Assembly (NCBI GenBank): GCA_002011125.2
Contig: MTMF02000009.1
Span: 1,640,989 to 1,704,988 of the forward strand
Direction: 5' to 3'
Source of the DNA: Candidatus Hydrothermarchaeum profundi
GTDB lineage: Archaea; Hydrothermarchaeota; Hydrothermarchaeia; Hydrothermarchaeales; Hydrothermarchaeaceae
DNA: 64,000 nucleotides
The translations under genes were made by a program, and so were the position numbers. Under the pieces are notes generated by a model that saw nothing but the letters and a program-made list of their open reading frames with translations, ran no database searches and was not told the DNA's origin. Positions 9,227 to 57,113 of this stretch are shown here, in pieces. Positions within the stretch are counted from its first letter, which is position 1. Each line of letters opens with the position of its first letter.

Positions 9227-9238
9227 AGGAGAAATACC

Positions 9239-40023: not shown

Positions 40024-40027
40024 TGAC

Positions 40028-41296: not shown

Positions 41297-41317
41297 TCCA
41301 GTTTCTCCTAGGAAATT

Positions 41318-42004
41318 TTATCTGCCTATATTTTTCCTATAGTATTCTACTATATCCCTCCCCTCTAAAAAAGTAATTCCTCTTTCCTGTGCATAACGTA
41401 AAGCTTCTTTATAATCTAACGAATTACCATCGTCTCCCATCATCTCACATATAGTAGCTACAGGCGTAAGCCCAGCCATTTGCATGAGGGCTACACTGAG
41501 TTCTGTATGGCCTCTCCTGTCTTCTAATAAGCCTTCTGATGCCCTTAATAAGGTAACATGCCCAGGAGACCTAAAATTCTTTCCAAACTCGTCTTCTTTA
41601 TATCCGTTAAGCAGTTTATCTGCAAGATTTGCTAACTCGCGTATAGTTAAAGCTCTATCGTTATCTGTGATGCCTGTAAAGGTCCTTCTATGGTTAACCG
41701 TGATTGAAAAAGACGATTTCTCGTCGTAAGGTATATCGTTAGCTTCGAGATATTTAAATACCCTATATTTCCTACTAGCATATTTCCAAACATCTACTAT
41801 GAAAGGAATACCAAGTTTATCTGCTATAAGAGGATGCAAAGCTACGCAGATCAATCCTCCACCATCCTTTCTCATAATTCTAATATGTTCTGGCCTAATA
41901 AACCGACTTGCTATCACGAAGTCTGTTTCTTCTTCCCGTCCATCTCCATCGTAAACCAGTATTAGCCTACCAGCCTTTAGCTCTCTGAGAGCCTTTTCTA
42001 TCAT
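41318..42004 (-). CDS. ribB: 3,4-dihydroxy-2-butanone-4-phosphate synthase
   Basis: [35 protein letters not shown]. Confidence 0.96.
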
Positions 42005-42669
42005 ACTTCCACCTTCACGCTTACTATATCTCCATCTTTAAGATTAAGGGCTTCTCTAATCTTCTTTGGAGAGATAATCTCAAGTTTATCGAAACCGTGA
42101 TGCGTCCGGTCAGGTATTACTATTGCAGCTTCTAATTCATCTACCCTAGCCCGAAAGCACTTAACCGGACCAAAAGTCCTATCTCCTTGCTTAAACCCCT
42201 GAATCCTGATTCCCCCAAGTTTCTGTAAAGTCTGCCTAATTCTCCTGTCATCTTCGGTTTTAAGCTTGATATTTAGAGTTCCAGGAAAAGGCTCAAAACC
42301 AAGTTTACTTTTAAATTGATCTACATATCCCTTAATTTTCATATAATAACTTCCTTCCCCAAGTCCCGAAACCACCTCCCCGTTTATTATATAAGTGCAA
42401 GGCTCATGCTCTTGTAAAATCTTATCTAACTCTTGGTGCACAGTTCTTAGTACCTCTATCCCTCGAGAAGTTAACTTAATCCTTTGTCCTCTAGGCAGTA
42501 CTTCCCGGACTATATATTCCTCCCTCTCTAGATCCCTAATTTTTCGTGATGCTGTTTGCTGTGAAGAACCAAGGGCATCCGCTAATCTACTCGAGGATAT
42601 CTCAGTCATTTTACTAGCGCATCCCATCCTCGCCAATGCTATGAGATCTAGAATATTCAATATAATCAA
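42001..42669 (-). CDS. ribK: CTP-dependent riboflavin kinase with N-terminal HTH (RbkR-type)
   Basis: [11 protein letters not shown]; SGLGEG.YY, PFPGTLN, P.RTHH. Confidence 0.95.
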
Positions 42670-42701
42670 CTCATTTTTGGGTTGCTAATCAATTTTGAGA
42701 A
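42667..42701. promoter_or_regulatory. Candidate autoregulatory operator of ribK-ribB
   Basis: Near-palindrome CAACTCA-TTTT-TGGGTTG plus adjacent TCA-N4-TGA copy over the ribK start region. Confidence 0.5.
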
Positions 42702-42769
42702 AGAGTATATTAACCTTATGTATAAAATTTGTACTTTGAATCAATCAAAAGGCACAATACATCTCTTTC

Positions 42770-43387
42770 TTATAGTTTCTTGTTTGCTAAGAGATGAGCT
42801 AGTCTTATTGGCTCTGGAAGTTTATAATCCCGAATGCAACTTATAGTTAATTTAAGAGCTGAATCAAGTGAAATTTTGTGGCCGGGACTAATATAAATTG
42901 GCCTAACTCCTTTTTTTGGTTTAAATGCATAGCCAACTTTGTTTTTTTGATAAATTATTGGAATAGGCTTCCTTACCTTTATTTCTCCTAGGACTTCCCC
43001 ACACAATAGTTTCTTAGCTACGCCTATAGTAGGAACATTCATCTCGACTCCAACATGAGAGGCAATTCCCATCCCTCTTGGATGAGCTATTCCATGACCG
43101 TCCACCATAAGAATATCGAAATCAATATCCGATAATGCTTCTATAATAGGATATGCTTCTCGGAAGGCAAGAAAAGTTGGGATATAAGGGAATCTTATAT
43201 CTACCTCAGTTACCTTCTTTTCAACTATTTTCAATGAACTAAATTCCAGTACGACAACACCGCATAATGCGGTTCTCCCCCTATATGCTAGATCAGCTCC
43301 TGCAATTAGTTCTTTGTTAAACTCATCTTTTAAAATTACTCTTTTAGCGAGAGCTTGTTGAATTGAGATAAGTCTTTTTTTATCCAT
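42770..43387 (-). CDS. nfi: Endonuclease V
   Basis: FPYIPTFLAFRE, DGHGIAHPR..GIASH, GVAK, YISPGH, LPEP. Confidence 0.95.
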   Translation of the reverse strand: MDKKRLISIQQALAKRVILKDEFNKELIAGADLAYRGRTALCGVVVLEFSSLKIVEKKVTEVDIRFPYIPTFLAFREAYPIIEALSDIDFDILMVDGHGIAHPRGMGIASHVGVEMNVPTIGVAKKLLCGEVLGEIKVRKPIPIIYQKNKVGYAFKPKKGVRPIYISPGHKISLDSALKLTISCIRDYKLPEPIRLAHLLANKKL

Positions 43388-43438
43388 TATAAAATAAAGT
43401 TTAAGAGGTATTTATTTGAGAAACTATTTTTACTAAAA

Positions 43439-43702
43439 TCAAGATTTTTTAGGAGGCTCATAGATGAGGTCTCTTAAAAGAACGATATCTCCTATAGACT
43501 TTATTGCCTTATAGGGTACTATTACTCCTTTTTTCCCTTCGGCACCTATCTTCTTGGAGAAATCGCTATCAAGCTTTGATAATATGATGCCCAGAACTTT
43601 TCCCGTTTCCGGATCTATAGAAACATCTTCCAATACGCCTACATGTTTGCCTCCTTCCGTGAATACTTCCAATCCGCTCATCTTGGTAAGTCGAGAAACC
43701 AT
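43439..43702 (-). CDS. PRC-barrel domain protein
   Basis: G.EVFT..G..VG.LEDV.ID...GKV; VPY..I..IGDIVL. Confidence 0.88.
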   Translation of the reverse strand: MVSRLTKMSGLEVFTEGGKHVGVLEDVSIDPETGKVLGIILSKLDSDFSKKIGAEGKKGVIVPYKAIKSIGDIVLLRDLIYEPPKKS

Positions 43703-43859
43703 ATAATCACCTTTTGATTATAATTGAACTCCTCATTATAAAGGTTTTGTTATTAAAGCGATATTTTGATTGGGAGTACAGAAACAACTTTAAATATATT
43801 TCTCACCATTTCAAAAGACTACAGGAAATTTTAAAGTATTAATTAACAAATTTTAGAAT

Positions 43860-44525
43860 ATGACCACAAAAAAAGAAATAAGCCATATTAAAAACATTTC
43901 ACCCAGATTAAACGATAGGAAGGCTATCACGCTAATTAGCCTTATGAAAAATGGGAGAATTTCGGACACGGAACTAATGGTGCACCTCGGATTAAAAAGT
44001 GCAAATTCGGCTTCGTACTATAGGAAAGATTTAGAAAAACAGGGAATAATTGAGGGATATACTACCTCAGTAAATTGGACAAAGATAGGATACCCTACGG
44101 ACTTTGTTATTTTAATAGAAGGGGGAAGTATGGAAGCGAATTTCAATATAGAGAAGGAGATAATAACATCTCTAGAAGATTACGCCAAGAAAAAAGGAGA
44201 TATTCTTATCTTGCCGAGCGGCAATGGTAGAGTCCTGATCAAAAATATAACTACCTGTTTCGGAGAAAGACCCATGACAATAATTCAGGGCCATGCCTCA
44301 TCAGAGCACGATGCCCTAATATACTTCAGATATTATGTTGCGGAGAAATTCCAAAATGCAAAAACAACTTTCTTGCTGGTGAAGGGTAAAAGTATAGATA
44401 ACCATTTTATCAAAAAGGATTACATAAATTTCATGAAAGGCTCCTTTACTGAAGAGGATACCCTAGAATTGCCCGAGGAGTTCAAAAAACATTTTCCATC
44501 ATTAGCAGCAAAACCAAAGAAATAG
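43860..44525 (+). CDS. Lrp/AsnC-like transcriptional regulator with extended C-terminus
   Basis: L..NGRISDTEL...LG, LEKQGIIEGYT..VNW.KIG. Confidence 0.8.
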   Translation: MTTKKEISHIKNISPRLNDRKAITLISLMKNGRISDTELMVHLGLKSANSASYYRKDLEKQGIIEGYTTSVNWTKIGYPTDFVILIEGGSMEANFNIEKEIITSLEDYAKKKGDILILPSGNGRVLIKNITTCFGERPMTIIQGHASSEHDALIYFRYYVAEKFQNAKTTFLLVKGKSIDNHFIKKDYINFMKGSFTEEDTLELPEEFKKHFPSLAAKPKK

Positions 44526-45242
44526 TTACTCCAACTCTAATTCTTCTCTTCCAAAAACCCTAAATCTTCCATTTGAATACAAAATAGGGAAATATTGCGT
44601 ATCATGATTTGTGCTCCTCATTTTCACTATACCGATATATCTTTCAAGAGCACTAAGCACATCCCCTCTCTTTTGGAAATCTAAATGTATTATTCCATCA
44701 GCTAGGAAATCCTCCACTCCATACTGGCTATATACCGGTCTCTCTGGAGACATTTCAGATATCAAAAAACAGGTTATCCCTGTGGTTTTCAAATCCTTAA
44801 AAAGGTAGTAGAGTTCCCTTCTTGGATCTCTAATAGTTGTTAAAGAGTAAAGAGCGTTAAGGGAATCTATAACCAATAAGTCATATTCCTGTCCTTTTTT
44901 AGCTTCCTCAATATATCCCCTAATCAACCGTATCCAATTGTCCCCGTATTTCTTTTCCATAGCTGCTTGAACCTTCCTAAAATCTACTAGCAGGATATTT
45001 CTGTGATCAGACATTCCGAGTCTCCTCATCTGTTGCATAAGACTCTCTATCTCCTGTTCTAGGGTTATATAGACGGACTTTAGATCTTCATTAACTGCAT
45101 TATTGTAAAGGATACTATATGCAAGAGAAGATTTCATAGTGCCTGCAGTGCCGCAGATTAACGTAATACTCCCCTTTGGAATTCCTCCTTCGATATGTCT
45201 GTCTAAACCTTCAACATAAGTTCTTATTCTAGGCACATCCAT
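44526..45242 (-). CDS. KaiC/RAD55-like ATPase (single domain)
   Basis: GLD..I.GGIP.GS, Walker A GTAGTMKS, YITLE, Walker B LVIDS, FLADGII, KMR; likely ATG 45242. Confidence 0.92.
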   Translation of the reverse strand: MDVPRIRTYVEGLDRHIEGGIPKGSITLICGTAGTMKSSLAYSILYNNAVNEDLKSVYITLEQEIESLMQQMRRLGMSDHRNILLVDFRKVQAAMEKKYGDNWIRLIRGYIEEAKKGQEYDLLVIDSLNALYSLTTIRDPRRELYYLFKDLKTTGITCFLISEMSPERPVYSQYGVEDFLADGIIHLDFQKRGDVLSALERYIGIVKMRSTNHDTQYFPILYSNGRFRVFGREELELE

Positions 45243-45409
45243 ATTATCACGTAAGATTTTTTTTACTTGAAGAATTAAATAGTTTTCCACAAGTAAAAAC
45301 GGTTTGGCACCGATGTTAATATCAAACAGCTACCAAAAGACTACTTCCGTATACCTAATACAACAAGAAATGACTCAAGAAATAATTAAATATTCAATAG
45401 GTTTAGTGA

Positions 45410-46867
45410 ATGGAAAGGATTAGTAAATATCGTAGAGGTAAAAGTTTGACTAATATTCAAAAGGAATTAATAAAAATTGTAGGACCAAAAAATGTCTTTT
45501 CTGAAAAAATTCAGAGATTTTGCTATCGTTTCGGGAATGTGATTGAGTATCGGTTTGATACTCCCTCCTTTTTACCAGATTTTGTGGTAAGACCTGTTTC
45601 AACACAGCAAGTAGCATCTATCCTGAAACTTGCAAACAAGCATCAAATCCCTGTCGTAGTATGGGGAGGTGGTACCGATTTTAGCGGAGCCAATAGTCCG
45701 ATTAAAAACGGGATTGTAATAGATATGAAAGAGTTTAATGAAATACAAGTTGATGTGAAGAGACGGTGTGTTACAGCCGGAAGCGGAGCTATTTTGAAGA
45801 AGATAGGGGAGGAGTGTGAAAATAAAGGATTTTTATTCGAGCATGAACTAACAAGCCAGCCAGGAGCAACTCTAGGAGGTGCGATTGCCACAAACTCATT
45901 TGGCTATAGGTCCGGAAAATATGGGTCCATTAGGAACCTTATACTAGGGATTGAAGTCGTCTTGCCTACAGGGGAGATAATAAAAACTAAGCCCTTGTTC
46001 AAAACATCCATGGGGTATGACCTCGTATCGCTCTTAGTTGGCAGTGAAGGAACATTAGGAGTGATAACTCAGGCTACATTGAAGCTTAGTCCTTTGCCAG
46101 AAAAAAGGGAACTCTATACCTTTGTATTCAGCAGGATAAATCATGCAATAGAAGCTGCTGAAAAAGTATACAACACTATCCCCCCAGATTTATTTGAAAT
46201 TTTTGAAATGAGTTTTTTGGGATATGTAGAGAATACTCAAGAATTTATAGAAGAGCATATTGGTATTCCAAAAAACCTGCTGGACTTAAGTGATGGATTC
46301 CCGGCTATCTTGACTGTAGGATATGAAGGTAAAAAAGAAGTAGTAAATAGTAAGATAAATATTTTGAAAGACTTAATAACCGATGGATTAAGTATTCAAA
46401 ACGAAGGTTACTATGAGAACAGGTTTATTAGGTATCATAAAGAGTTCAGAAAAATCCTCAATCTTCTGCCAAACATTTCATTAAAAGATTACAGCTATGC
46501 TACCTTTGACTTCAGCATCCCTGAAACAAAGTTATTGGAATTTAATGATACTCTTCACGCAATATCTAAAGAATATTCAAATACATATCTATTGGATGTA
46601 AACCTCTATTCAGCGCTTTCTGTCGTGGGTATAGATTTCTTTGTGCCAAATAATAAAGAAGTTTACAAGAATTTGGCTGAGGAAATATTTAGAGTAGTAT
46701 TAGAGCTAGGCGGATCTTTATCTTCTGTCCATGGAATAGGAACTCGGTTAATACCTCACCTTAGAAAAGATTTAGGTGATCCATACGTAGACTTAATGAA
46801 TAGAATAAAGAAAGCCTTTGATCCTTTGAATATCTTAAACCCTGGTAAGCTGGGTAACGTGATGTAA
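45410..46867 (+). CDS. FAD-binding oxidoreductase (GlcD/alkyl-DHAP synthase superfamily)
   Basis: P..VVRP, GGGT, ATLGG, KYG, GYDL..L.VGSEGTLGVIT, HGIG, DP.NILNPGK. Confidence 0.9.
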   Translation: MERISKYRRGKSLTNIQKELIKIVGPKNVFSEKIQRFCYRFGNVIEYRFDTPSFLPDFVVRPVSTQQVASILKLANKHQIPVVVWGGGTDFSGANSPIKNGIVIDMKEFNEIQVDVKRRCVTAGSGAILKKIGEECENKGFLFEHELTSQPGATLGGAIATNSFGYRSGKYGSIRNLILGIEVVLPTGEIIKTKPLFKTSMGYDLVSLLVGSEGTLGVITQATLKLSPLPEKRELYTFVFSRINHAIEAAEKVYNTIPPDLFEIFEMSFLGYVENTQEFIEEHIGIPKNLLDLSDGFPAILTVGYEGKKEVVNSKINILKDLITDGLSIQNEGYYENRFIRYHKEFRKILNLLPNISLKDYSYATFDFSIPETKLLEFNDTLHAISKEYSNTYLLDVNLYSALSVVGIDFFVPNNKEVYKNLAEEIFRVVLELGGSLSSVHGIGTRLIPHLRKDLGDPYVDLMNRIKKAFDPLNILNPGKLGNVM

Positions 46868-46868
46868 A

Positions 46869-47216
46869 ATGGAGGAAAACACCGAACTCATACAACTCTG
46901 TTTGAATACCCGATGCAATTACTGTAGATCTGCGTGTAGAGATTTTAAGAGAAGAAGAATGGAGTTCGGATCTCCAAGAGAAAAAATAGAGATAGTTTAC
47001 GAAGCTCTTAATGGTAGATTGAACCCTAAGGAAGCCTCCGATAATCTTTTCCATTGTATTTCTTGTAAAAAATGCTCATCTGCTTGCCCTTACAACATTG
47101 ATACTTCAAAAATTTTATGGGATAATAGAAGATTATTTGAAAATTGTCCTAGAAAGTATTTCTTCATACTAGCCTATGTCTTCTCCAAGCTCTTCAGAAT
47201 AAGCTACCGGGGCTAA
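46869..47216 (+). CDS. 4Fe-4S dicluster protein (GlcF N-terminal-like, no CCG domains)
   Basis: CLNTRCNYCRSAC, SPR and CISCKKCSSACP. Confidence 0.75.
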   Translation: MEENTELIQLCLNTRCNYCRSACRDFKRRRMEFGSPREKIEIVYEALNGRLNPKEASDNLFHCISCKKCSSACPYNIDTSKILWDNRRLFENCPRKYFFILAYVFSKLFRISYRG

Positions 47217-48329
47217 TATACACCTCGCAGGCAAGTGCCAAGGCTTCTCGCCGTCTAATTTTATATCATTGTCTAAAGATTTGGCCAAAAGTACACCTTT
47301 ATCGAATGTCGGCTCCATGAAACCTAGTTTAGAAAACGCGTTTCTTCTCCATTTAATTCTTCTATCAAAGACACTAGCCACAAAACTATAATTAGGCTTA
47401 GAATCTATGATGTATAAGAGCATATTAGCAGGCACCGTAGAATTTTGAAACTCTCCTACAACCGCAAACTCATCAGGGGTATATCCGTAAAATATTTGCC
47501 AATTATCACTATAAACCGGTTTTCCAAACATCCAGCCGCTCCATGCAGAGATAATGTAGGTTAGTACCCCAATAATCTCGCTGTCTTTCTCAGCTACAAT
47601 ACCTTGGATATTATTATTTTTAATTATTTTACCAAATTTACTTAAAGTATAATTTGCGGCAATTTCGAAATCTTTATTAGTGTTCTCGAGGAGTCTAACA
47701 ATATCCGAGTAATCTGATTTTTCCATAGACCTTAAATGTATATTTTCAGGGAGCCTTCCGACAAACAAACTTTTAGCCTTATTGTAGCCTCTAAGTAACT
47801 TGAAAATTAATCTCCAATACAAATTCGCTTCAGCTCGCCAAAAATAAGGGATCGTTCCTTTTAAGTTAATCCCACTAGAAAACCAATTTACTCCCTTTAT
47901 CCACTTAAATCCAAGCCGCTTGAATAGTTCTTGATTTCTCAAAAAATTCTCCTCAAACTCCCAGCCACATAAGATGCTTACATCTTGGCATCTTAATTCT
48001 GCACTTATATCCGAAAATAAAAGTTCAAATATCCTATTATAATTTTTTCTATAATGTGGGTGAATACAATTGTCTACAAAAGAAGCTATTCTAACGCTCT
48101 CTCCTTTAACTAAAGCATCCAGTAGTATAACCCCTAATGAAGCTATAATTTTATCATCTCTTTCTATTCCTCGTACTACATAGTCGCCAGACATCTTGTA
48201 TCTAAGGATCCACTCATTAGGCACCCTCACATAATCAAATTCCTTTTTATCATAGAATATAGACTCATAAAATAGTTTCAAGAATTCGGCATCTCTTTCT
48301 CGAGAATACTCCACAATTTTGAAACCCAT
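47169..48329 (-). CDS. Tandem GNAT-family acyltransferase
   Basis: CIHPHYRK and LFKRLGF in the first half; LRSMEKSD, VAEKD..IIG and AFSKLGF in the second half. Confidence 0.7.
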   Translation of the reverse strand: MGFKIVEYSRERDAEFLKLFYESIFYDKKEFDYVRVPNEWILRYKMSGDYVVRGIERDDKIIASLGVILLDALVKGESVRIASFVDNCIHPHYRKNYNRIFELLFSDISAELRCQDVSILCGWEFEENFLRNQELFKRLGFKWIKGVNWFSSGINLKGTIPYFWRAEANLYWRLIFKLLRGYNKAKSLFVGRLPENIHLRSMEKSDYSDIVRLLENTNKDFEIAANYTLSKFGKIIKNNNIQGIVAEKDSEIIGVLTYIISAWSGWMFGKPVYSDNWQIFYGYTPDEFAVVGEFQNSTVPANMLLYIIDSKPNYSFVASVFDRRIKWRRNAFSKLGFMEPTFDKGVLLAKSLDNDIKLDGEKPWHLPARCILAPVAYSEELGEDIG

Positions 48330-48409
48330 GTTTAAAAAGCAGACAAAACTTAAATATTAAAGTTCCTTCGAAAAGTTAATTTAGCCCGTCTTCGGGAGTA
48401 GCAGAAAAT

Positions 48410-51388
48410 ATGAAACTCGAAAACTTCCTTATAACTCCTTTAACAATTCTTTTTTTAATTCATAGTGTAACTGCCTACTCATCTTATTATTCAGACATAC
48501 CTTTTTTTATAAAGTTCTATGTGTTAGTTTTGGGTTTGCACCATGCCTCAATGATAGCTTTCCTGTGGGAAATAAAAGGAGTTTCTAAATCGAAAGTGTG
48601 GGATAATATATTCAACGCAAATATATGCGGCATTTTTATTACATTCTCTTTAGCTTTGCTTTTGTATAACCTTTACTTAAATTCTATAAACTGGCGGCAT
48701 CTATTAGTCATCTGTGCGGGATTAGATATAGTAGCTCACATTTTTGCCGATATTACTCTATATTATCTTGTAAAGCCTATTATTAAGGAGAAGCTTAATT
48801 TATTTAAATACAGGTATTTAGCCCTTTACGCAGGAATCACAGGGTCTTTATTCTTCTTGATCATATATAATTTAAAAATAAAATTTCCTACCGTCTCTAC
48901 TGATCTACCTTTTAGCATTCTAGGTTTACTTTTTGCTTTTACAGTTTTTTACTTTGTATATTCCCCTATTATAATTTCTGAGGCATATAGAGAAATAGGT
49001 TTTGTTAGGAAACCATTCTCCCTTGCTGGAATAGGAGCTTTAACATTTGTTATCTCTTCTATATTAGTTTTATATGTGACCTTCTACCATATTGAAACTA
49101 CTATTAGACATCAGCTTTTCTACAATATAGCGATTTATGTTCTGGCATCAATTTTCTCATTGATATTCTATACTAAGTTTATAGTAGAGTATCCATCACT
49201 TCTAGAGAGAAAATGGAAAGCATTAATGCCTTTTGATTTTATTAAAATCGCTACAACTTTAGCTCTATTTTTCTTGGCTGTGTCTCTTTATTTTTCAGCT
49301 GAAAAATATTTGGAATTGCCCTTTAGGCTAGAAATATTATTGCCGGTTCTTTTAGGTTTACTAGCGATTTTTATAACCGTAATTTATATTCTTTCATACA
49401 CAAATAGCATTTATAATAAAAGCAAGCTTGTTTATTGGATATATCTAAAAGCTGGTTTATTTATTCATGTAGCATCTACTCTATATGTGCTAGCACTAAT
49501 TATTCTTTTATGGAAGACCCTGAACAATATAGGTAAATACCTATCATCCTTCTTTATTGTTCTTGTATTTTCATTTTACATTTCTTATGCAATGGATCTG
49601 CGCACAATTTTGAAAAATCTGGGGATAAGAACTCGTCTTACTAAAGCTGAAATCACAGGTAATGCTGTGTTGCTCTATGCTATATTTTTAATAATTTTCT
49701 TCTTTATCCTTTTAACCTATGGGAAAACTTCACTAATTTTATATGATATCCAGATAGAATCCTACCCCTTTCTATTATTTTCAATAGCCGTTTTCTTGGT
49801 TGCATATATAAGTTACCTAAGCGTCACGCACAAGGGATTTGAAGAAATGATGAAAAAAAACATTTGGAGCGAACTAACCTATATATCCGGATTTTTAACT
49901 TTTATTACAGTCTATTTATTATATACCTCAGAAAAAAATGTCCAACTTTTCCTATTTCACGATTTCTTTTTTATAAGCTATTTCGTGATGCTTTTAATCG
50001 AAATTGCGTCAATAAGAACGTTAGGATATCATCCGATACATAAAAAAGGTGAAAAAAGCCTGATGTATCTTTTCTACCATCATACGAGCGCATATTTCAG
50101 GGTAGATTACCTTGAGAAAAAATGGAAAAAAATTGTAGACACATACAAGCATCTAGACAGTAAACTATCTACGATCAAGTACAATCCTGCCAAGAGGTCT
50201 TTTGACCTATCAGAACTAAATGAAAAAGCTAGGACTGTTGTTGCCGTTGCAATGTTGCTTGAAATGTACCAGGATAGGAAGGATTTAGGTAAAGTTACAC
50301 CCCTCGGAGAACGCGATATAAAGAGAGAAATAAAAGAAACCTTGAAAGAAAAGGTACTACTCCTCCCCGCAGATTTAAGATCTAAATTTGATGAAGACGA
50401 ATACTATCCTCTTCTCTATGAGTATGCGATTAATACTATAATCGAAAAAATCAAGCCATTTGTCCCTGTTGAAGAACATCAAGAAATTTTTAACAAACTA
50501 AAAAGGGTAGATGATTTCTTCGAATCATTAGAACTCCGGGATTCCAAAATCAATTTTAAGACTGAAAAAAGAATTTCCAGAAGAAACTTTATAAGATATT
50601 TAAAAATGTATTTGCGTTCCATAGAGGAGAGGTTCCCTTTTGAAGATAAGTTACTGTATGAATCTGTAAAAGAGTTAGTGAATAGAGACCTCTCTAATTA
50701 CGGTTTTTCTGTAGTAGATTTGTTAGACATAGTGCCTTCAGGTATCAATCCTGTAGACCGGATTAGTGGCGGACTAAAAAAAGGTACTATGACCCTTCTA
50801 ATATCTGAAGAAAATAAGTATAAGAACGAATTTCTAGAATCCTTCATACGTCAAGGATTAAAAGACGGTGATTGTAATATTTATGCAACATCAAAACTAC
50901 CCTCACAAGAGATATATAATAATCTTTTAATGGATTTTGAAATTAAAAAAACCACTCTAATAGACCTCTATCAGTCGATATATACAACATCACCAGTATC
51001 TAGCATCAGAGAGGAACCTCATAAAATAATTATACCCCCCACAATCATCTCATGGAAAATTAGCTTAACAAAAGCGGTTAAAAAATATTCAAAAGAAGAA
51101 CATAAAAGAATAGTCATAGACGTATTTAATGATCTCCTGAGGTACTATAACCAAGATGAGATAACCAAAGTTTTATATCGACAGCTTGAGGGACTTCGAA
51201 AGTGGAATTGTACTGTAATAATAGTTCTTTATCCTAAAACATTTCAAGAAAATAAATATGAAGAAATTAAAAAATGGTTTGATAACGTTCTCATTTTAGT
51301 AGGGCGAGAAAAAACTTACTTAAATTTTGATAAACTTCATGGAGGATTGCCAAAAAAGAGGTCAATACCTCTTGAGGAACAGTGGTGA
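48410..51388 (+). CDS. Polytopic membrane protein fused to a degenerate KaiC/RAD55-like domain
   Basis: About 540 aa of successive TM segments; helical linker; C-terminal VPSGI..VD..SGGL..GT with decayed Walker A (ISEENKYK), RIVID and FDNVL. Confidence 0.8.
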   Translation: MKLENFLITPLTILFLIHSVTAYSSYYSDIPFFIKFYVLVLGLHHASMIAFLWEIKGVSKSKVWDNIFNANICGIFITFSLALLLYNLYLNSINWRHLLVICAGLDIVAHIFADITLYYLVKPIIKEKLNLFKYRYLALYAGITGSLFFLIIYNLKIKFPTVSTDLPFSILGLLFAFTVFYFVYSPIIISEAYREIGFVRKPFSLAGIGALTFVISSILVLYVTFYHIETTIRHQLFYNIAIYVLASIFSLIFYTKFIVEYPSLLERKWKALMPFDFIKIATTLALFFLAVSLYFSAEKYLELPFRLEILLPVLLGLLAIFITVIYILSYTNSIYNKSKLVYWIYLKAGLFIHVASTLYVLALIILLWKTLNNIGKYLSSFFIVLVFSFYISYAMDLRTILKNLGIRTRLTKAEITGNAVLLYAIFLIIFFFILLTYGKTSLILYDIQIESYPFLLFSIAVFLVAYISYLSVTHKGFEEMMKKNIWSELTYISGFLTFITVYLLYTSEKNVQLFLFHDFFFISYFVMLLIEIASIRTLGYHPIHKKGEKSLMYLFYHHTSAYFRVDYLEKKWKKIVDTYKHLDSKLSTIKYNPAKRSFDLSELNEKARTVVAVAMLLEMYQDRKDLGKVTPLGERDIKREIKETLKEKVLLLPADLRSKFDEDEYYPLLYEYAINTIIEKIKPFVPVEEHQEIFNKLKRVDDFFESLELRDSKINFKTEKRISRRNFIRYLKMYLRSIEERFPFEDKLLYESVKELVNRDLSNYGFSVVDLLDIVPSGINPVDRISGGLKKGTMTLLISEENKYKNEFLESFIRQGLKDGDCNIYATSKLPSQEIYNNLLMDFEIKKTTLIDLYQSIYTTSPVSSIREEPHKIIIPPTIISWKISLTKAVKKYSKEEHKRIVIDVFNDLLRYYNQDEITKVLYRQLEGLRKWNCTVIIVLYPKTFQENKYEEIKKWFDNVLILVGREKTYLNFDKLHGGLPKKRSIPLEEQW

Positions 51389-51454
51389 CCACAAAAAATA
51401 TTTATTTTAGAAAATAAAGTTAGATAAGTCCCTAGGTTAGATGGAAGTATATCT

Positions 51455-52120
51455 ATGAACCATTTCATTTCAATAGCGAGTACTATTCTAGCTTTTGGAA
51501 TAATAGGTGGTGGTCTAAAGTTTATTGACGATGCCTTCGATGAAGGAATATTTAATAAAAAGCTAGCTAGTATTACTGCAGTAATACTAGTAATATTGTG
51601 GATTTTTTTATCTCTGAAAGATCCTTACTCCGGGACAATATTATTTTCAATTTTAGCAGGGGTTCTTTTCTCTGGAAAAATAGATAATACAGTATTTATT
51701 GCAAGTACTCTTGCACTCGCTTTGACTACGCTGATTATGGGAGCTACGATATTTTGGATACCGCTGATTATTTTAACTATCTTCGGAGTTATTGATGAAC
51801 TAGGCAATGACTATACGGACATCCACAAAACTCGGCGGCTGATAAAATTTTTTTTTGAACACAGATGCACACTAAAACTGGGTATTCTTGCGATTTGTTT
51901 AACTACATTTTTTCCTATAGAATATTTTCTAATTTTCTTAGCTTTTGATATCTCATATGACTTTGTAGGAATGTATAGTAAAAGAATTAGCAATATAGCA
52001 GAGCCTAAAGTTACAATATTCCTGTGTAATGAACTTCCTTTCCAAATACCTGTAGAACGTGTATGTTTTATGAAATCTGGATTACGCCTTGAGGATAAAA
52101 GCATAAGAATTATTGTATAA
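51455..52120 (+). CDS. Hypothetical membrane protein with Asp-rich loops
   Basis: About 6 TM; KFIDDAFDE, GKIDN, DELGND, EHR, FD..YD. Confidence 0.7.
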   Translation: MNHFISIASTILAFGIIGGGLKFIDDAFDEGIFNKKLASITAVILVILWIFLSLKDPYSGTILFSILAGVLFSGKIDNTVFIASTLALALTTLIMGATIFWIPLIILTIFGVIDELGNDYTDIHKTRRLIKFFFEHRCTLKLGILAICLTTFFPIEYFLIFLAFDISYDFVGMYSKRISNIAEPKVTIFLCNELPFQIPVERVCFMKSGLRLEDKSIRIIV

Positions 52121-52626
52121 ATAATATACTTCATTAGGGAAAAAATTTTTTAATAAAAAAAAGAATTTTAAACCATAATAGATAAATTTTTTAGAATTTT
52201 TATTTGTTAATTAAATTAAAAATTTACTTTATTATAAATTTATAATATTATTAAAAAATTTTATTTCTTTAATTATTTTATTAATAATTTAATGATAAAA
52301 TAAAAAATTAAATTTATTTCTATGTTTTATAAATCCTATATCCTAAAAGTGAGAAACAGTTCACATTAAAGAGGTTTATATCCCGAGCTAAATTACTCTT
52401 TAGTCCTTCAAAGATCGTAACTTTGAAAAGATAGTTAATAGCAGAATAGATTGGCCATATATTAAAAAAAATATTATTATTTTATTTTTTAAGGTTAATA
52501 TAAGTCTATTTTTGTTTTGATTTTTTATAGAATATTTATCTATTTTTTTCAAAAAATATTATAGAAATAGTATAGTAAATATTATTTTCTATAAATTTTC
52601 TTTTTTAATTTAACAATATTTCATTA
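52121..52626. other. Long, extremely AT-rich intergenic region
   Basis: About 500 bp of poly-A/T tracts; central perfect inverted repeat TTCAAAG-N7-CTTTGAA at 52407-52427. Confidence 0.8.
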
Positions 52627-52639
52627 GGAGGTGAAGTAA

Positions 52640-52765
52640 ATGGAGCAAGTATCCCCTCTACAAAGCGATGTTAAACGCCTTTACGAACTATTAGGGGTGG
52701 GGAAAAGAGGGGAAATAAAACACGCAAAGTCCGGTGGGGGAAGAGATGAAAAAAAGTATTTCTAA
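52640..52765 (+). CDS. Microprotein 1 (41 aa; not in ORF track)
   Basis: MEQVSPLQSDVKRLYELLGVGKRGEIKHAKSGGGRDEKKYF*; ideal RBS GGAGGTGA 5 nt upstream. Confidence 0.65.
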   Translation: MEQVSPLQSDVKRLYELLGVGKRGEIKHAKSGGGRDEKKYF

Positions 52766-52892
52766 AAAAAGCTCAAGTCATATTATCCTCTGCCCAGATG
52801 AAACAAAAAAGAGAGTAAATAACTACGTCATCGTAGAAATAGAGGGAACCGGTTTTGTAGTAATAAAACAAAAAATAGACGCGGAGCTATGA
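52746..52892 (+). CDS. Microprotein 2 (48 aa; not in ORF track)
   Basis: MKKSISKKSSSHIILCPDETKKRVNNYVIVEIEGTGFVVIKQKIDAEL*; G-rich RBS; overlaps microprotein 1. Confidence 0.55.
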   Translation: MKKSISKKSSSHIILCPDETKKRVNNYVIVEIEGTGFVVIKQKIDAEL

Positions 52893-52893
52893 T

Positions 52894-53070
52894 ATGGAGG
52901 AGATTATTGAAAGAAAAAAACTTCTAGAGAAATATAGGATAAAAGAACCTGACGAAACACAGATATACTTAATACTCAGAGACTTTGTTTCAGACCCTCT
53001 TCTAGACACCGAATTCAAGAGAAAATTTCCCTCATTAACATCTATCCTGAAGCAGAGAAATAAAGGATAA
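52894..53070 (+). CDS. Microprotein 3 (58 aa; not in ORF track)
   Basis: MEEIIERKKLLEKYRIKEPDETQIYLILRDFVSDPLLDTEFKRKFPSLTSILKQRNKG*; GGAG RBS; starts 1 nt after the previous stop. Confidence 0.7.
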   Translation: MEEIIERKKLLEKYRIKEPDETQIYLILRDFVSDPLLDTEFKRKFPSLTSILKQRNKG

Positions 53071-53084
53071 AATCTATAAAATTC

Positions 53085-55076
53085 TCATTTTTCTATAGGT
53101 ATTCTGCCATCAATTAGCGATTTTATTATCGTAGGATCAGCGAGGGTAGACGTATCGCCTAGATTTTCGTAATCACCTTCTGCTATCTTTTTGAGTATTC
53201 TTCGCATAATCTTACCGCTTCTAGTTTTAGGAAGCCCATTTGCAAATTGTATGTAGTGAGGGGTTGCAATAGGGCTTATCTCTTTTCTTACATGTTGAAT
53301 TAGCTCTTTTTTTAGTTCGTCCCTCTTTTCTACATCTTTTTTCAAAACTACAAAACAATATATCGCCTGACCTTTTATAGGGTGAGGCACACCTACCACG
53401 CCCGCTTCAACTACAGCATCATGAGAAACTAGTGCATTTTCTATCTCAGCAGTTCCTAAACGGTGCCCAGATACATTTATAACGTCGTCAATACGGCCCA
53501 TAATCCAAAAATATCCATCCTCATCAACCTTAGCGGCATCCCCCGTCATATATTTCCCCTTGAACTTGCTAAAGTAAATCTCTTTAAATCTCCTATTACC
53601 TTTATCACCAAATATCCCTCTCAGCATACCAGGCCATGGTTTTTTAATAACTAGGTACCCGCCTTCATTTGCTTCCGCAGGAGTACCATCTTCTTTTAAA
53701 ACTTCAGGAAATATTCCAGGAAAAGGTAATGTAGCCGAGCCGGGTTTGAGAGGGGTTGCCCCGGGTAAAGGGGTAATTAATATGCCGCCAGATTCGGTTT
53801 GCCACCAAGTATCCACTATAGGACATCGCTCTTTTCCTATTACCTTATAAAACCAAAGCCATGCCTCCGGATTAATGGGCTCTCCTACTGTCCCCAAAAG
53901 CCGTAGGCTTGATAAGTCATGCTTATTAGGCCATTCCTCACCAAACTTCATAAGGGTTCTAATCGCAGTAGGAGCAGTATAAAATATAGAAACTTTGTGT
54001 CTCTCTATTATACTCCAATATCTATCCGGATTAGGATAAGTTGGAGTACCCTCAAACATTAGCACAGTCGCTCCAGCAGATAATGGACCATAGACCATAT
54101 ATGTATGGCCTGTTATCCACCCGACATCAGCCGTACACCAGAAGATATCAGTATCCTTTATATCAAAAATATACCTAAAAGTCATATTGGCATAGACCAT
54201 ATACCCTCCAGTAGTATGTATTATTCCTTTAGGTTTCCCTGTAGAACCACTTGTATATAATATAAATAAGGGGTCTTCTGCATCCATAGGTTCCGGGGGA
54301 CATTCATCTTTGATATCGCTTGAGTGTGTTTCTTCTTCCCACCAGTAGTCGCGACCCTCCTCCATATTTACCTCGGCATTTCCTATATTTCTAACAATAA
54401 CTGACTGAATAGAATCACAGTCAGGGAGGATCTCATCAGCCTTTTCCTTTAGATGTATAACTTTTCCCGCATGATAAGCTATATCTGTAGTTATCAACAT
54501 CTTAGATTGAGCGTCTTGTATTCGGTTTTTAAGGGCTTCCGGAGAAAATGCACTAAATACAACACTATGTACCGCGCCAATTCTCGCACAAGCCAGCATT
54601 GCAATAGTCAATCTAGGTACCATTGGCATGAATATTGTAACCCGGTCCCCTTTTTTTACTCCATGTTTTTTGAGTACGTTTGCAAATCTACAAACTTCTC
54701 TATGCAACTGTAGATATGTGAACACTTTACGTTGAAGATGGCTTTCTCCCTGCCATATGAGTGCTGCCTTATTTCTCCGGTGCCCACTTAAGTGTCTATC
54801 AATACAATTATAAGACGCATTCAGCTTTCCCCCTTCATAGAACCTCACGTATGGAACAGTAAAATCATAACTTACAACTCTATCCCATTTTTTAAACCAG
54901 TCAATACATTCTGCCTGTGCAGCCCAGAAGCCTTCAAAATCTTCTTCCGCTTCTCTTTGAAGAGCACGGTATTCTTCAAGGCTTTTTATAATGGCGGTTT
55001 CCCTAAATTCTTTTGAAGGATAAAAAACTCTTTCTTCTTTTGATAAGCTCATTATGGTTTCTGGGTCTTCTTTCAT
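53085..55076 (-). CDS. acs: Acetyl-CoA synthetase (AMP-forming)
   Basis: YTSGSTGKPKG, VGEPINPEAW, DTWWQTE, LPKTRSGKIMRR, LGDTSTL. Confidence 0.96.
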   Translation of the reverse strand: MKEDPETIMSLSKEERVFYPSKEFRETAIIKSLEEYRALQREAEEDFEGFWAAQAECIDWFKKWDRVVSYDFTVPYVRFYEGGKLNASYNCIDRHLSGHRRNKAALIWQGESHLQRKVFTYLQLHREVCRFANVLKKHGVKKGDRVTIFMPMVPRLTIAMLACARIGAVHSVVFSAFSPEALKNRIQDAQSKMLITTDIAYHAGKVIHLKEKADEILPDCDSIQSVIVRNIGNAEVNMEEGRDYWWEEETHSSDIKDECPPEPMDAEDPLFILYTSGSTGKPKGIIHTTGGYMVYANMTFRYIFDIKDTDIFWCTADVGWITGHTYMVYGPLSAGATVLMFEGTPTYPNPDRYWSIIERHKVSIFYTAPTAIRTLMKFGEEWPNKHDLSSLRLLGTVGEPINPEAWLWFYKVIGKERCPIVDTWWQTESGGILITPLPGATPLKPGSATLPFPGIFPEVLKEDGTPAEANEGGYLVIKKPWPGMLRGIFGDKGNRRFKEIYFSKFKGKYMTGDAAKVDEDGYFWIMGRIDDVINVSGHRLGTAEIENALVSHDAVVEAGVVGVPHPIKGQAIYCFVVLKKDVEKRDELKKELIQHVRKEISPIATPHYIQFANGLPKTRSGKIMRRILKKIAEGDYENLGDTSTLADPTIIKSLIDGRIPIEK

Positions 55077-55196
55077 AAAATCACTCCTTTCACCGAGAAT
55101 ATATTCTTCCTTGAATTTTATTTTCTGGTTATTTAAGGTTTCACTTACAAGCCTAATATAGCAAAATTTTTAATTGTCAACCAACCTCGATTAGAT

Positions 55197-56273
55197 ATGA
55201 AAGAATCTGTAAAAATAGGAACACTTTTTGGAATTCCAATCGAACTTCACATATTATTCATTCTTCTTATGGTCTTTGTCTTCGCTATTAGTTTAATTTC
55301 TGGAAGATTAGATATTTTTGTCTACCTCTCACTCCTTTTTTTTACGGTGGTCTTACATGAATTTTCTCATTCACTCGTTGCTATGTCTAGGAATATAAAA
55401 ATAGAGAAGATAACATTATTCCCTATCGGGGGGGTTTCAGCAATGGAAAAGATGCCGGAGGATCCAAAGGAAGAATTTATGATTTCTATTGCGGGTCCTG
55501 GCCTCAATTTTTTATTCGCAGCATTGACTTACCTTATAATCGCACTAATACCTGGCGGTTCCTCAAGGATATTTCCATTCTTTGATTTTAGATTATTTAG
55601 TTTCCTCGACTTGTTAGTATTATTTTTCAAGGTAAATGTGCTCTTAGGAGCATTTAATTTATTCATCCCCGCATTACCGATGGACGGAGGGAGGGTATTA
55701 AGAGCTCTATTGGCCATGAAAATAGGCTTTAACGCCGCCACAGATATCGCAGCAGGGTTAGCTAAGTTAATTGCGATAATGATGTTCCTCTTCGGCATGT
55801 TTTTTAATTGGTGGCTGCTTGTAATATCATTTTTTGTATACGTCGGAGCATCCCAAGAACTGGAATCTATGGAGATTTCCGCTCTTTTAAAGGGGATTAA
55901 AGTAAAAGATGTTATGAGTAGTAAGGTAATATACGTCTCTGAAGATATGAGCCTAGAAGAGTTCTCCGATATAATACTGGAGCACCGACATATGGGTTAC
56001 CCTGTGATTAAAGATGGCTCGTTAATCGGTATTATAACGTTCACAGACTTAGCAAGAATACCTAAAACAAAGTGGCGAGAAATTAAAGTGGGAGATGTAA
56101 TGTCAAAGGATGTAGTTACCGTATCGCCAGAGGATAATACTATCGATGTGCTCACCAAAATGATGAAGCTCGGTATTGGAAGAGTACCCGTGGTAAAAGA
56201 TGGTCAGGTTGTAGGGATAGTATCAAGGACTGATATAGTTAGGACAGCTCAAGTTCTAAAACTCCGGAGATGA
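55197..56273 (+). CDS. Site-2 protease (M50) with CBS pair
   Basis: HEFSH, AGP..N, FNL..PALPMDGGR, two CBS domains. Confidence 0.93.
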   Translation: MKESVKIGTLFGIPIELHILFILLMVFVFAISLISGRLDIFVYLSLLFFTVVLHEFSHSLVAMSRNIKIEKITLFPIGGVSAMEKMPEDPKEEFMISIAGPGLNFLFAALTYLIIALIPGGSSRIFPFFDFRLFSFLDLLVLFFKVNVLLGAFNLFIPALPMDGGRVLRALLAMKIGFNAATDIAAGLAKLIAIMMFLFGMFFNWWLLVISFFVYVGASQELESMEISALLKGIKVKDVMSSKVIYVSEDMSLEEFSDIILEHRHMGYPVIKDGSLIGIITFTDLARIPKTKWREIKVGDVMSKDVVTVSPEDNTIDVLTKMMKLGIGRVPVVKDGQVVGIVSRTDIVRTAQVLKLRR

Positions 56274-56276
56274 ATT

Positions 56277-57113
56277 ATGAAGGGAGAAGCGGCGGCACTG
56301 CTTGCTGCCCTCTCGTGGGCTATAGCATCTGTTCTCTATAAGAAAGGTCTCTACAAGATTGAGCCTTTTCCTGCTAACATCGTTAGACTTGTAATTGGTA
56401 CCTTTTTTGTTACATTCTCTTATATTCTTGTTAAAGGACTAGATTTCCAAGCATCTTTAGAACCTCTACTTTATGTGGTTGCTGGAGGATTGGTTGGACT
56501 AGGGCTAGGAGACCTACTTTTTTTAAAGAGCTTAAAATATGCTGGAGTTTCAAGAGCTGTTCCTATCTCAAGTACTTACCCCTTATTCACAATCCTCTTT
56601 TCTACCGTATTGCTTAAAGAGAAAGCATATGTTTCAACAGTACTAGGAACATGCCTCATAGTGGCAGGGATATGGCTTCTTCATGAAAAGACAGATAGCG
56701 AAAATCAACAATCCGGGATTTTATTTGCAATTGGTACTGCTATCACTTGGGCATTTTCTATTTATCTTACATCCTTTGGATTAAGGTCAGTGGAACCATT
56801 CCTCGCCACTACTATCAGACTTCCGCTAGTACTGCTTTTCCTCTCTATCATATTTTATTCTACGGGCGGAAGGATCACTCCTGAAAAGATATCCTTCGCA
56901 TATTTAGGGATCGCAAGTGTACTAGCTCTGGGAGTAGGCAGTTTTTTATTTCTATATAGTATTACCCTGATTCAGACTGCAAGAGCCACTTCTTTATCAT
57001 CTGTAATCCCTTTGTTTTCTACAGTATTTGCGATAATTTTTTTAAAAGAGAGGGTTACCTTAAGGATGACCATAGGGATACTATCTATTGTGATCGGGAT
57101 TTGGTTGTTATGA
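56277..57113 (+). CDS. DMT/EamA transporter
   Basis: About 10 TM in two EamA repeats (P.F...L.LKE). Confidence 0.9.
   Translation: MKGEAAALLAALSWAIASVLYKKGLYKIEPFPANIVRLVIGTFFVTFSYILVKGLDFQASLEPLLYVVAGGLVGLGLGDLLFLKSLKYAGVSRAVPISSTYPLFTILFSTVLLKEKAYVSTVLGTCLIVAGIWLLHEKTDSENQQSGILFAIGTAITWAFSIYLTSFGLRSVEPFLATTIRLPLVLLFLSIIFYSTGGRITPEKISFAYLGIASVLALGVGSFLFLYSITLIQTARATSLSSVIPLFSTVFAIIFLKERVTLRMTIGILSIVIGIWLL

Follow-up and report, generated by a model that had tools for sequence, protein, structure and literature searches.

Which of the genes packed into an 11-kb stretch of archaeal DNA belong together, and what might they do? The question is raised by positions 43860-55076 of a 64-kb window, by which we mean the whole stretch of DNA that was analyzed (1,640,989-1,704,988 of contig MTMF02000009.1), in the 2.19-Mb genome of Candidatus Hydrothermarchaeum profundi. 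The original prediction, made from the letters alone, treated an Lrp-like regulator, a KaiC-type ATPase, an oxidoreductase dependent on flavin adenine dinucleotide (FAD), a short Fe-S protein, a tandem GNAT, two membrane proteins, an AT-rich region, three microproteins, and an acetate-CoA ligase (Acs) as one sensing and signaling locus. All of its open reading frames (ORFs) were found where it had put them. KaiC-like ATPases of archaea were proposed to act as signaling hubs, with inactivated KaiC (iKaiC) domains carried on sensors, by Makarova, Galperin and Koonin (2017), as cited in the available text of PMC5847659.

Here, we report that positions 43860-52120 are the fullest contiguous copy found of a conserved archaeal module, which recurs in Hydrothermarchaeales, in anaerobic methanotrophic archaea of group 1 (ANME-1) and related metagenome-assembled genomes (MAGs), and in metagenome contigs, that is, in at least two archaeal phyla-level groups. 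The constant parts are the body of a large membrane protein (Mem992), a second membrane protein (Mem221), and the cytoplasmic pair KaiC254 and Lrp221, and the exchangeable part combines the enzyme genes that lie upstream of Mem992 with the first seven membrane helices of that protein. We did not find a description of this module in literature searches, which covered papers without their supplements, and the Mem992 family is possibly listed in the 2017 paper on KaiC hubs. The features of the module are as follows.

43860-44525, + strand: Lrp221, 221 aa, winged helix-turn-helix (HTH) protein
44526-45290, - strand: KaiC254, 254 aa, KaiC (PF06745)
45410-46867, + strand: FAD485, 485 aa, FAD_binding_4 and FAD-oxidase_C
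46869-47216, + strand: FeS115, 115 aa, 4Fe-4S dicluster protein
47169-48329, - strand: GNAT386, 386 aa, putative tandem GNAT-type acyltransferase, divergent from Mem992
48410-51388, + strand: Mem992, 992 aa, KaiC domain at residues 775-968 (E = 2.9e-9)
48410-49190, + strand: variable head of Mem992, residues 1 to ~260, signal-like helix and seven membrane helices
49191-51388, + strand: conserved body of Mem992, eight membrane helices, helical linker, and inactivated KaiC/RecA domain
51455-52120, + strand: Mem221, 221 aa, polytopic membrane protein of no family

Joint exchange of the enzyme genes and the Mem992 head

In three groups of congeners (four pairs of loci), the block of enzyme genes is replaced along with the first ~240-440 codons of Mem992, and the flanks and the rest of the protein are 80-98% identical. 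Locus L084, for example, is a congener of L016 and L015, with flank proteins that reach 91-98% identity to one or the other. At the DNA level, L084 and L016 are 93.6% identical over 9.1 kb to one side and 89.5% identical over 1.7 kb to the other, and the intervening 3.9 kb, comprising the FAD, Fe-S, and GNAT genes and Mem992 codons 1 to ~240, has no similarity. At the corresponding block, L016 carries two genes resembling geranylgeranyl reductase (GGR) and a different Mem992 head; L015 has yet another version, in which two GGR-like genes accompany an amine oxidase. Identities of the head, measured over window residues 30-300, and of the body, measured from residue 340 to the end, were as follows.

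L084 and L016: head 43%, body 96%
L015 and L016: head 38%, body 83%
L013 and L014: head 37%, body 80%
L092 and L018: head 30%, body 84%
Window and L084 (same cassette type): head 63%, body 40%

Another locus with the cassette type of the window, L085, has a head that shares 58% identity with that of the window over 272 residues; the window head resembles the heads of these two distinct loci with its close cassette type, not those of closer kin. The switch from dissimilar to similar sequence falls at residues 260-320, in a conserved EYPSLLxPKWKALMPFD segment, in three of the pairs and near residue 440 in L092/L018. In a maximum-likelihood tree of the bodies, L084 grouped with L016 (99/97), L013 with L014 (100/100), and L092 with L018 (100/99). 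In the tree of the heads these pairs were separated and the window grouped with L084 (100/99), and the median end-branch length was 1.22, compared to 0.28 for the bodies. The head tree included three of the four GNAT-type rows; L092 was left out, its head being on a separate 137-aa ORF. In that locus, Mem992 is split into the 137-aa head piece (4292-4705) and an 857-aa remainder (1688-4261), by a frameshift, an assembly error, or a real split.

The original prediction had compared the arrangement to synthase-receptor pairs, and in this respect it was supported: exchange of an enzyme cassette together with N-terminal membrane helices is the pattern of synthase-receptor specificity loci.

Architecture of Mem992

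An AlphaFold2 (AF2) model of Mem992 (mean predicted local distance difference test [pLDDT] score of 82.2, from 37 sequences) comprised a signal-like helix, 15 membrane helices that end at residue 538, a helical linker at residues 551-770, and a RecA-like domain at residues 775-987. The exchangeable head corresponds in this model to the first seven membrane helices, residues 32-263. By Foldseek, the top matches of the RecA-like domain were sso2452, PH0284, and KaiC (E = 4e-7 to 1e-5), with target template-modeling (TM) scores of 0.63-0.72 against single-domain chains, and a profile search of the PDB matched the C-terminal domain to KaiC (3.1e-14). At the P-loop position this domain has SEENKYK, which takes the form SEE(N/T)xxK across homologues; among the 37 sequences, K805 never varies and E800 and E801 almost never do. 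The P-loop as such is lost. Because the residues at the degenerate P-loop (two Glu and a Lys) are kept in the 37 homologues, the C-terminal domain reads as a long-standing pseudo-ATPase of the iKaiC type, as judged from the aligned sequences.

Elsewhere in the protein, conserved loop motifs such as THKGFEE were seen, and hhalign found no internal repeat (best E = 0.022). An Atlas search with residues 1-560 gave nothing at 0.9 or above, and the Foldseek list for the whole model was filled by KaiC-domain matches. As predicted, the membrane protein involves no histidine kinase, with no HisKA or HATPase_c domain in Mem992; kinases occur as separate neighbors in some loci. In the loci of a Pyrohabitans-like genus (L015, L016, L017, L021, L024, and L084), a same-strand histidine kinase follows Mem992 and Mem221, and in most of these six, genes of the cobalamin pathway (aminotransferase, CobQ, and CbiB) come next.

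We searched for the head in 1.84 billion representatives and obtained 29 at E <= 0.001, all of which were of the Mem992 type; the short ones among them carried no other domain.

Linkage and co-distribution of the core genes

Mem992 orthologues were present in 17 of 40 relatives, after a genome (G014) with only a 184-aa KaiC-like ORF (E = 1.1e-4) was dropped. In the first 13 Mem992 loci, Mem221 was the only one of 20 window proteins that adjoined Mem992, in 7 of 13. Mem221 was next to Mem992 in 8 of a second set of 13 loci, three of which were common to both sets. This adjacency occurs in either orientation and includes MAGs of ANME-1, Methanospirareceae, and Methanosarcinales. KaiC254 is divergent from Mem992 in the window, L047, and L048, and directly so in the ANME-1 locus L037, and a Lrp221 orthologue (63-70% identity) abuts KaiC254 stop-to-stop in 7 of 19 loci with a KaiC254 orthologue.

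Of the 40 relatives, 16 had both Mem992 and KaiC254, 1 had only Mem992, 4 had only KaiC254, and 19 had neither (9, 0, 2, and 12, respectively, when counted by genus). For Mem221 and KaiC254, 17 had both, 2 had only Mem221, 3 had only KaiC254, and 18 had neither. The lack of independence among related genomes makes these counts overstate the association. Even so, family f2 contains one genus without Mem992 and KaiC254 and two genera that carry both genes. KaiC254 was present in all nine relatives with a Lrp221 orthologue. Outside the order, we compared five Mem992-bearing genomes (an ANME-1, an Alkanophaga, a Methanospirareceae, a Methanosarcinales MAG, and a Halobacteria-labeled MAG), and four of the five have exactly one KaiC254 orthologue, at 50-54% identity.

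Taken together, synteny and co-distribution place Mem992, the stand-alone KaiC, and the Lrp-like regulator with one another, as had been claimed, and the search of gene neighborhoods in relatives found the core genes recurrently linked and co-distributed. The broader claim, that the entire region is one system, stood in part. Mem992, Mem221, FAD485, FeS115, GNAT386, KaiC254, and Lrp221 recur as linked pairs or blocks, but Acs, the AT-rich spacer, and the micro-ORFs mp41 and mp58 lay beside the module in no other locus compared. A lack of synteny and co-distribution, which together with a lack of interaction had been named in advance as the sign of a chance cluster, was accordingly contradicted for the core genes and found for those four elements.

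The enzyme cassette of the window and its alternatives

FAD485, the first gene of the cassette, encodes a GlcD-like FAD-linked oxidoreductase (FAD_binding_4 and FAD-oxidase_C) that scored 245.6 bits against the glcD equivalog, below the cut-off of 567.9. FeS115 was matched by Fer4_17 and related models, and by the GlcF model with 35 bits, compared to a cut-off of 333, over positions 17-102 of 409. Homologues of FeS115 are 96-118 aa long in Mem992-linked loci and 353-354 aa long in L086, L087, and L090. We considered whether FeS115 is a truncated remnant of GlcF and ruled this out because the short form recurs, at 96-118 aa, in Mem992-linked loci. The N-terminal half of GNAT386 matched Acetyltransf_9 with 27.9 bits (cut-off 25), as did 15 of 17 family members, and the C-terminal half gave a weak match to NMT_C (13.6 bits versus 27.9), seen in 3 of the 17. 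A profile of the GNAT386 family searched against the PDB gave a weak match to eukaryotic N-myristoyltransferase at the junction of its two lobes (E = 0.003). The claim of a tandem GNAT therefore holds for the N-terminal half, and the second half is weakly supported by the NMT_C and N-myristoyltransferase profiles. Three members of the family, P0127, P0129, and P0136, come from records of Hodarchaeales and Promethearchaeota (Asgard).

No GNAT386 homologue was found in the 40 relatives. The closest GNAT386 homologues, however, lay on contigs equal in length to those that carry the closest Mem992 homologues, and metagenome contigs were therefore scanned with a GNAT386 alignment, which yielded 11 GNAT-family loci; L083 and L084 were counted as one organism because their Mem992 proteins are identical and the five genes that they share had the same matches. 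Homologues of FAD485 and FeS115 lie beside the GNAT gene in 7 of the 11 loci, and in one more the Fe-S gene alone is present at the contig end. Mem992 is divergent from the GNAT gene in five, a Mem221 homologue is near in four, and a GGR-like gene is near in three. The trio is conserved in these contigs, which rules out that the FAD, Fe-S, and GNAT genes are unrelated insertions, and the proposal that they form a unit coupled to Mem992 was upheld by the 11 loci. In one of them, L088, a gene for a FIST-domain protein (8705-10000) and a second, 431-aa ORF (7359-10000 region) lie directly upstream of the GNAT386 homologue, and the same contig carries a Mem221-like gene and a KaiC paralogue.

Other loci carry other enzymes. 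GGR_cat flavoproteins formed one cluster of 20 proteins from 15 loci, beside Mem992 and/or a KaiC254 orthologue, and their genes are placed immediately before Mem992, in a divergent arrangement with the KaiC254 orthologue, or in the interval that separates these two. A GGR-like gene divergent from KaiC254 was also seen in Methanospirareceae and Methanosarcinales loci (L081 and L082), in which the GGR-like proteins are 47-64% identical to those of Hydrothermarchaeales. The remaining cassette enzymes are small 2x[4Fe-4S] ferredoxins, larger Fe-S proteins, an amine-oxidase-type flavoprotein, and a B12-binding radical S-adenosylmethionine (radical-SAM) enzyme. The window genome has no close copy of the GGR-like gene, its best match being 24-31% identical and located elsewhere in the genome. 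That closest homologue is directly beside a different, canonical KaiC paralogue (G000:C9:1139494-1141435), so the pairing of GGR with KaiC may be more general than the module.

KaiC254 and Lrp221

KaiC254 had been called an intact single-domain KaiC. It does have a single KaiC domain (PF06745, 145.1 bits, cut-off 26.6, E = 2.7e-42), but its Walker A motif is deviant. The motif reads GTAGTMKS, not the canonical GxxGxGK[ST]: a Met replaces the P-loop Gly, and the Lys and Ser are retained. Across the family it is G[TS]xG[TSC]MKSS, with the Met invariant in 11 of 11 aligned orthologues, whereas the 13 other RecA/KaiC-type paralogues of the genome that were compared (Mem992 excluded) all have G-K-[S/T/H/R] and none has Met. 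D142 and E78, which correspond to the Walker B and catalytic acidic residues of KaiC and RecA, are invariant, and the second acidic position is a Gln (E-Q pair). The true start of the protein is likely the ATG at 45242. Orthologues, one clear copy each at 52-69% identity, were found in 20 of the 40 relatives. As a separate observation, a 921-aa KaiC-domain protein elsewhere in the genome (G000:C9:421486-424251) adjoins a stand-alone KaiC (424290-425027); its layout comprises a zinc-ribbon-like Cys motif and TPR-like repeats (both identified by eye), a KaiC-type ATPase, one membrane helix by hydropathy, and a large C-terminal part.

The designation of Lrp221 as an Lrp-like regulator fits its N-terminal ~90 residues, and the remainder, a C-terminal domain of 130 aa that could be assigned to no family, has no Lrp match. 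HTH_24 and Lrp-type models matched residues 17-90 only, and a PDB profile search aligned residues 18-105 with AsnC/Lrp chains (best E = 5.5e-8). Whole-protein NCBIfam Lrp models scored 24-28 bits, with cut-offs of 190-250, and covered residues 17-87 only. For residues 106-221, the PDB profile and NCBIfam searches gave no convincing match to a solved chain and no RAM domain. Orthologues with 62-70% identity are present in 9 of the 40 relatives. The C terminus of Lrp221 is LPEEFKKHFPSL, and the tail LPEEFKK[RH]FPSL is invariant in 8 of 8 orthologues; a second subfamily of Lrp221-like proteins, at 36-40% identity, has neither the tail nor module neighbors. A complex prediction for KaiC254 and Lrp221 scored 0.00, which gives no verdict and bears neither way.

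Mem221

The AF2 model of Mem221 (mean pLDDT 86.9) has eight helices. The acidic motifs KxxDxAxD, GKxD, and DExGN are invariant, and in 43 sequences the invariant residues were K22, D25, D29, D77, D114, E115, N118, R137, K141, and D165. Its homologues fell into 87 clusters, all unnamed and with no consistent Pfam family, and an Atlas search returned unnamed archaeal clusters only. Foldseek against the PDB gave nothing below E = 0.6, and the best match in a VIA-align wide search was BtuM (Z 6.4, root-mean-square deviation 4.8, 128 aligned), a Z in the uninformative range for helical models. The hints of cobalamin, namely BtuM as the best, nonsignificant fold match and the B12 radical-SAM enzyme in one cassette, are possibly a coincidence.

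Sequences downstream of and around the module

The remainder of the region consists of the following features.

52121-52639: AT-rich spacer, 519 bp, 15-19% GC
52640-53070, + strand: micro-ORFs mp41, mp52, and mp58, in tandem
53085-55076, - strand: Acs663, acetate-CoA ligase

Two internal links had been proposed to tie the region together, a shared peptide motif and a shared promoter word. The peptide motif is beyond chance, since F[KR]xxFP[ST]L occurs at two places only in all six frames of the genome: in the tail of Lrp221 (EFKKHFPSL) and in that of mp58 (EFKRKFPSL, with basic residues after it). Within the compared loci, which total 681,563 bases, the same pattern was confined to seven Lrp221 orthologues. 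The 11-bp promoter word CAAAAGACTAC is indeed present at 43812, 48 nt before the Lrp221 start, and at 45334, in the spacer between KaiC254 and FAD485, but it was not distinguishable from chance: the genome has 6 copies compared to 1.5 expected, 6 of 100 shuffles of the window did equally well with one mismatch allowed, and the word was not seen upstream of the Lrp221 and KaiC254 orthologues that were inspected.

The AT-rich region is real and extreme, accounting for four of the five 400-bp windows with <20% GC among 21,797 genome-wide. Its middle is interrupted by ~130 bp (about 52320-52450) with a normal base composition. Upstream of Lrp221, a 13-base AT-rich word (43839-43851) has an inverted copy in the spacer (52202-52214), which is likely due to chance. 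The three predicted micro-ORFs are open and each is preceded by a Shine-Dalgarno-like sequence. A homologue of mp52, the sole micro-ORF with such a homologue, lies just downstream of Mem221 in L043 (E = 6.75e-9). No orthologue of mp58 was found in the 40 relatives; its residues 6-44 match DUF2226 (E = 6.5e-5), and its N-terminal half thus looks like a piece of a DUF2226 protein. No match to mp41 was found in the compared loci and searches. Acs663 is an ordinary acetate-CoA ligase outside the module, with 1025.7 bits against NF001208 (cut-off 657) and 985.3 against TIGR02188 (cut-off 724.95), and no Acs homologue lay beside homologues of Mem992, KaiC254, or GNAT386 in the compared loci. The inclusion of Acs in the system did not survive this comparison, and the same holds for mp41, mp58, and the AT-rich region, none of which adjoined the module in another locus. 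What remains as leads from this part of the region are mp52 and the tail motif of mp58.

The window sequence is also present in a second study, and DNA contigs of a third study contain a strain that is 95-98% identical to it, with pieces that span Lrp221, the cassette, the GNAT/Mem992 junction, the Mem992/Mem221 junction, and the micro-ORFs. This strain keeps positions 52590-53047 at 97% identity (13 differences in 458 bases). Weak joints in the DNA contigs at 49713>52223 and 52299>52862 have short sides (21 letters), and we draw no interpretation from them. An Rfam scan of positions 40000-58000 gave no match at E up to 1, and no tRNA was found in the region.

Riboflavin genes flank the module (41318-42669 and 57101-57760), encoding 3,4-dihydroxy-2-butanone 4-phosphate (DHBP) synthase, a CTP-dependent riboflavin kinase with a MarR-type HTH, and RibD_C. 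Homologues of DHBP synthase and riboflavin kinase are near KaiC and Mem992 in the ANME-1 locus L037, and the Alkanophaga locus L031 holds homologues of RibD_C and of a PRC-barrel protein. The riboflavin genes beside the module may reflect old synteny or a link to the flavoenzymes.

Discussion

What, then, might the module do? We tentatively favor the view that Mem992 senses, at the membrane, a hydrophobic cassette product to which its exchangeable head is matched, and that KaiC and Lrp carry the output, because the joint replacement of cassette and head matches the pattern of agr and ComQXPA. According to this model, the cassette enzymes would synthesize or alter a hydrophobic, probably isoprenoid or lipid-derived compound within or at the membrane, and the matched seven-helix head of Mem992 would bind it. 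The resulting change would pass to the pseudo-KaiC domain, which may join or regulate a KaiC254 ring, and KaiC254 would in turn control Lrp221, perhaps through the invariant C-terminal tail, so that Lrp221 alters transcription. A bolder version of the sensor model, which we consider unlikely on present evidence, is that the module is an archaeal counterpart of pheromone specificity groups, in which each cassette would produce a distinct lipid-soluble signal (isoprenoid-derived or acylated) that is read by a matched head and relayed through the pseudo-KaiC and KaiC to an Lrp-type regulator.

Several observations weigh against the sensor model. Every binding step and contact between the proteins, the chemistry, and the sensing of a compound as opposed to its making or moving are inferred. 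The membrane part of Mem992 has no known sensor family and no sequence match in the PDB, and none of the 29 representatives of the head is fused to a kinase or other output domain; because the head occurs only in Mem992-type proteins, its classification as a sensor rests on analogy. The P-loop Met and the E-Q pair suggest that KaiC254 may be poor at ATP hydrolysis. Cassette type is not a full predictor of head similarity: L092 and L093 have GNAT-FAD cassettes, with heads 32% identical to that of the window and GNAT proteins 41-42% identical, and in the head tree the GNAT-type rows do not form one clade, L093 standing apart from the window. The cassette labels were, moreover, assigned by the analyst from neighboring genes, and the co-distribution tables carry the overstatement given with them. 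The module is also often split, as in G026, where KaiC254 is 185 kb from Mem992, and in family f8, where Mem221 is unlinked from Mem992, and Lrp221 orthologues are present in just 9 of the 20 relatives that bear KaiC254.

The main rival explanation is that Mem992 and Mem221 form a biosynthesis or transport machine in the membrane, for the synthesis, flipping, or export of an isoprenoid or lipid-linked compound that the cassette enzymes tailor. The head would then determine the specificity for the substrate, KaiC254 would dock on the pseudo-KaiC domain and serve as a motor or assembly factor, the role of Lrp221 would be no more than to regulate the genes, and the turnover of cassettes would reflect selection for diverse membrane or surface chemistry. 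We regard this as somewhat unlikely, although it is equally consistent with the cassette enzymes, with the acidic motifs in Mem221, and with the finding that no head is fused to another output. The cassette enzymes (GGR_cat flavoproteins, amine oxidase, B12 radical-SAM enzyme, and ferredoxins) act on hydrophobic substrates, and uncharacterized archaeal GGR paralogues may saturate quinones, polyprenols, and carotenoids, according to the available text of PMC10821996. The invariant acidic motifs of Mem221 lie in membrane helices, like those of metal-dependent membrane enzymes; Mem992, with 15 membrane helices and conserved loop motifs, would suit such a machine, as would a head that is never found on another output domain. 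On the other side, a recombination joint inside a gene that keeps its cytoplasmic RecA-like end is the layout of a receptor specificity locus, while surface-polysaccharide loci typically show whole-gene replacement, unlike the joint inside Mem992. The tight pairing of KaiC254 with a DNA-binding protein fits signaling, and no transporter or glycosyltransferase family matches Mem992 or Mem221.

The other explanations appear less probable. That the whole of 43860-55076 is one system, with Acs feeding the GNAT and the microproteins acting as partners of KaiC, is doubtful at best: mp58 has the tail motif of Lrp221, found nowhere else in the genome, mp52 has its homologue after Mem221 in L043, the micro-ORFs are in tandem with Shine-Dalgarno-like sequences, and the strain of the third study conserves 52590-53047, but Acs is ordinary by score and absent from all compared loci, mp58 has a DUF2226-like N-terminal half and no orthologue in the 40 relatives, and mp41 has no match. 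A chance juxtaposition of unrelated neighbors, to which the first 13 relative loci with only Mem221 beside Mem992 and the absence of GNAT386 from the relatives might have pointed, is very improbable given that the linkage recurs in several orders and phyla, that the genes are co-distributed, and that cassette and head are replaced jointly. We think it just as improbable that the locus is a defense or conflict system, with a variable hot-spot cassette and a KaiC-like ATPase as sensor or effector. The rapid turnover of cassettes between congeners would suit such a role, and KaiC-like ATPases are reportedly linked with Asgard defense (PMC13700489); however, PADLOC models matched none of eight proteins, the ninth, KaiC254, giving a weak P-loop match to mad8 (E = 5.4e-6), and the enzymes encoded in the cassettes catalyze redox and acyl-transfer reactions, with no nucleases or other usual effectors among them.

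Returning to the sensor model, we compared the module with known systems. Like the proposed archaeal KaiC hubs, it combines a stand-alone KaiC-like ATPase and a neighboring DNA-binding protein with an iKaiC domain on a putative input module, and its chain includes no histidine kinase. It differs from them in the family-wide P-loop Met of its ATPase, in an input that consists of a 15-helix domain of no known family with an exchangeable head, and in the inclusion of enzyme cassettes and a second membrane protein. The hubs themselves are still hypothetical. With regard to agr and ComQXPA, the available text of PMC10482373 describes a hypervariable region that covers agrB, agrD, and agrC, and that of PMC4008528 describes ComP as variable in its N-terminal membrane domain but conserved in its cytoplasmic part, and ComQ as an isoprenyl transferase. 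The variable block of the module similarly covers enzyme genes and an N-terminal membrane domain, with the cytoplasmic part conserved, and the action of ComQ on an isoprenoid resembles the isoprenoid chemistry proposed here. Unlike those systems, the module has no visible peptide precursor, its putative receptor ends in a pseudo-ATPase instead of a histidine kinase, its enzymes are flavoproteins, Fe-S proteins, and a GNAT, and its hosts are archaea.

The enzymes, too, have known counterparts. Archaeal GGR paralogues with neighboring ferredoxins are described in a review whose available text does not mention KaiC (PMC10821996), and the alternative cassettes likewise hold GGR_cat flavoproteins and small 2x[4Fe-4S] proteins, unlike the window's own cassette, which has no GGR-like gene. 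FAD485 has both domains of GlcD, and FeS115 matches the dicluster part of GlcF, but both are below the equivalog cut-offs, FeS115 (115 aa compared to a 409-position model) is without the rest of GlcF, and the pair is tied to a putative tandem GNAT and Mem992.

In the literature that we examined, no defined input was found for membrane-linked forms of KaiC, and the module offers a testable case: its domain boundary is clear, head and cassette are naturally swapped between near-identical genomes, and it has its own regulator, the tail of which is conserved. If Mem992 and Mem221 are a machine, the module would point to a so far unknown line of archaeal isoprenoid or lipid chemistry that is diversifying rapidly in Hydrothermarchaeales and ANME-1-related lineages. 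If the head is a receptor for the product of the cassette, the module would be evidence of strain-specific chemical signaling in archaea that uses parts unlike the bacterial ones, and if each cassette does make its own signal, closely related strains with different cassettes would constitute separate groups for communication or kin recognition, with no histidine kinase involved.

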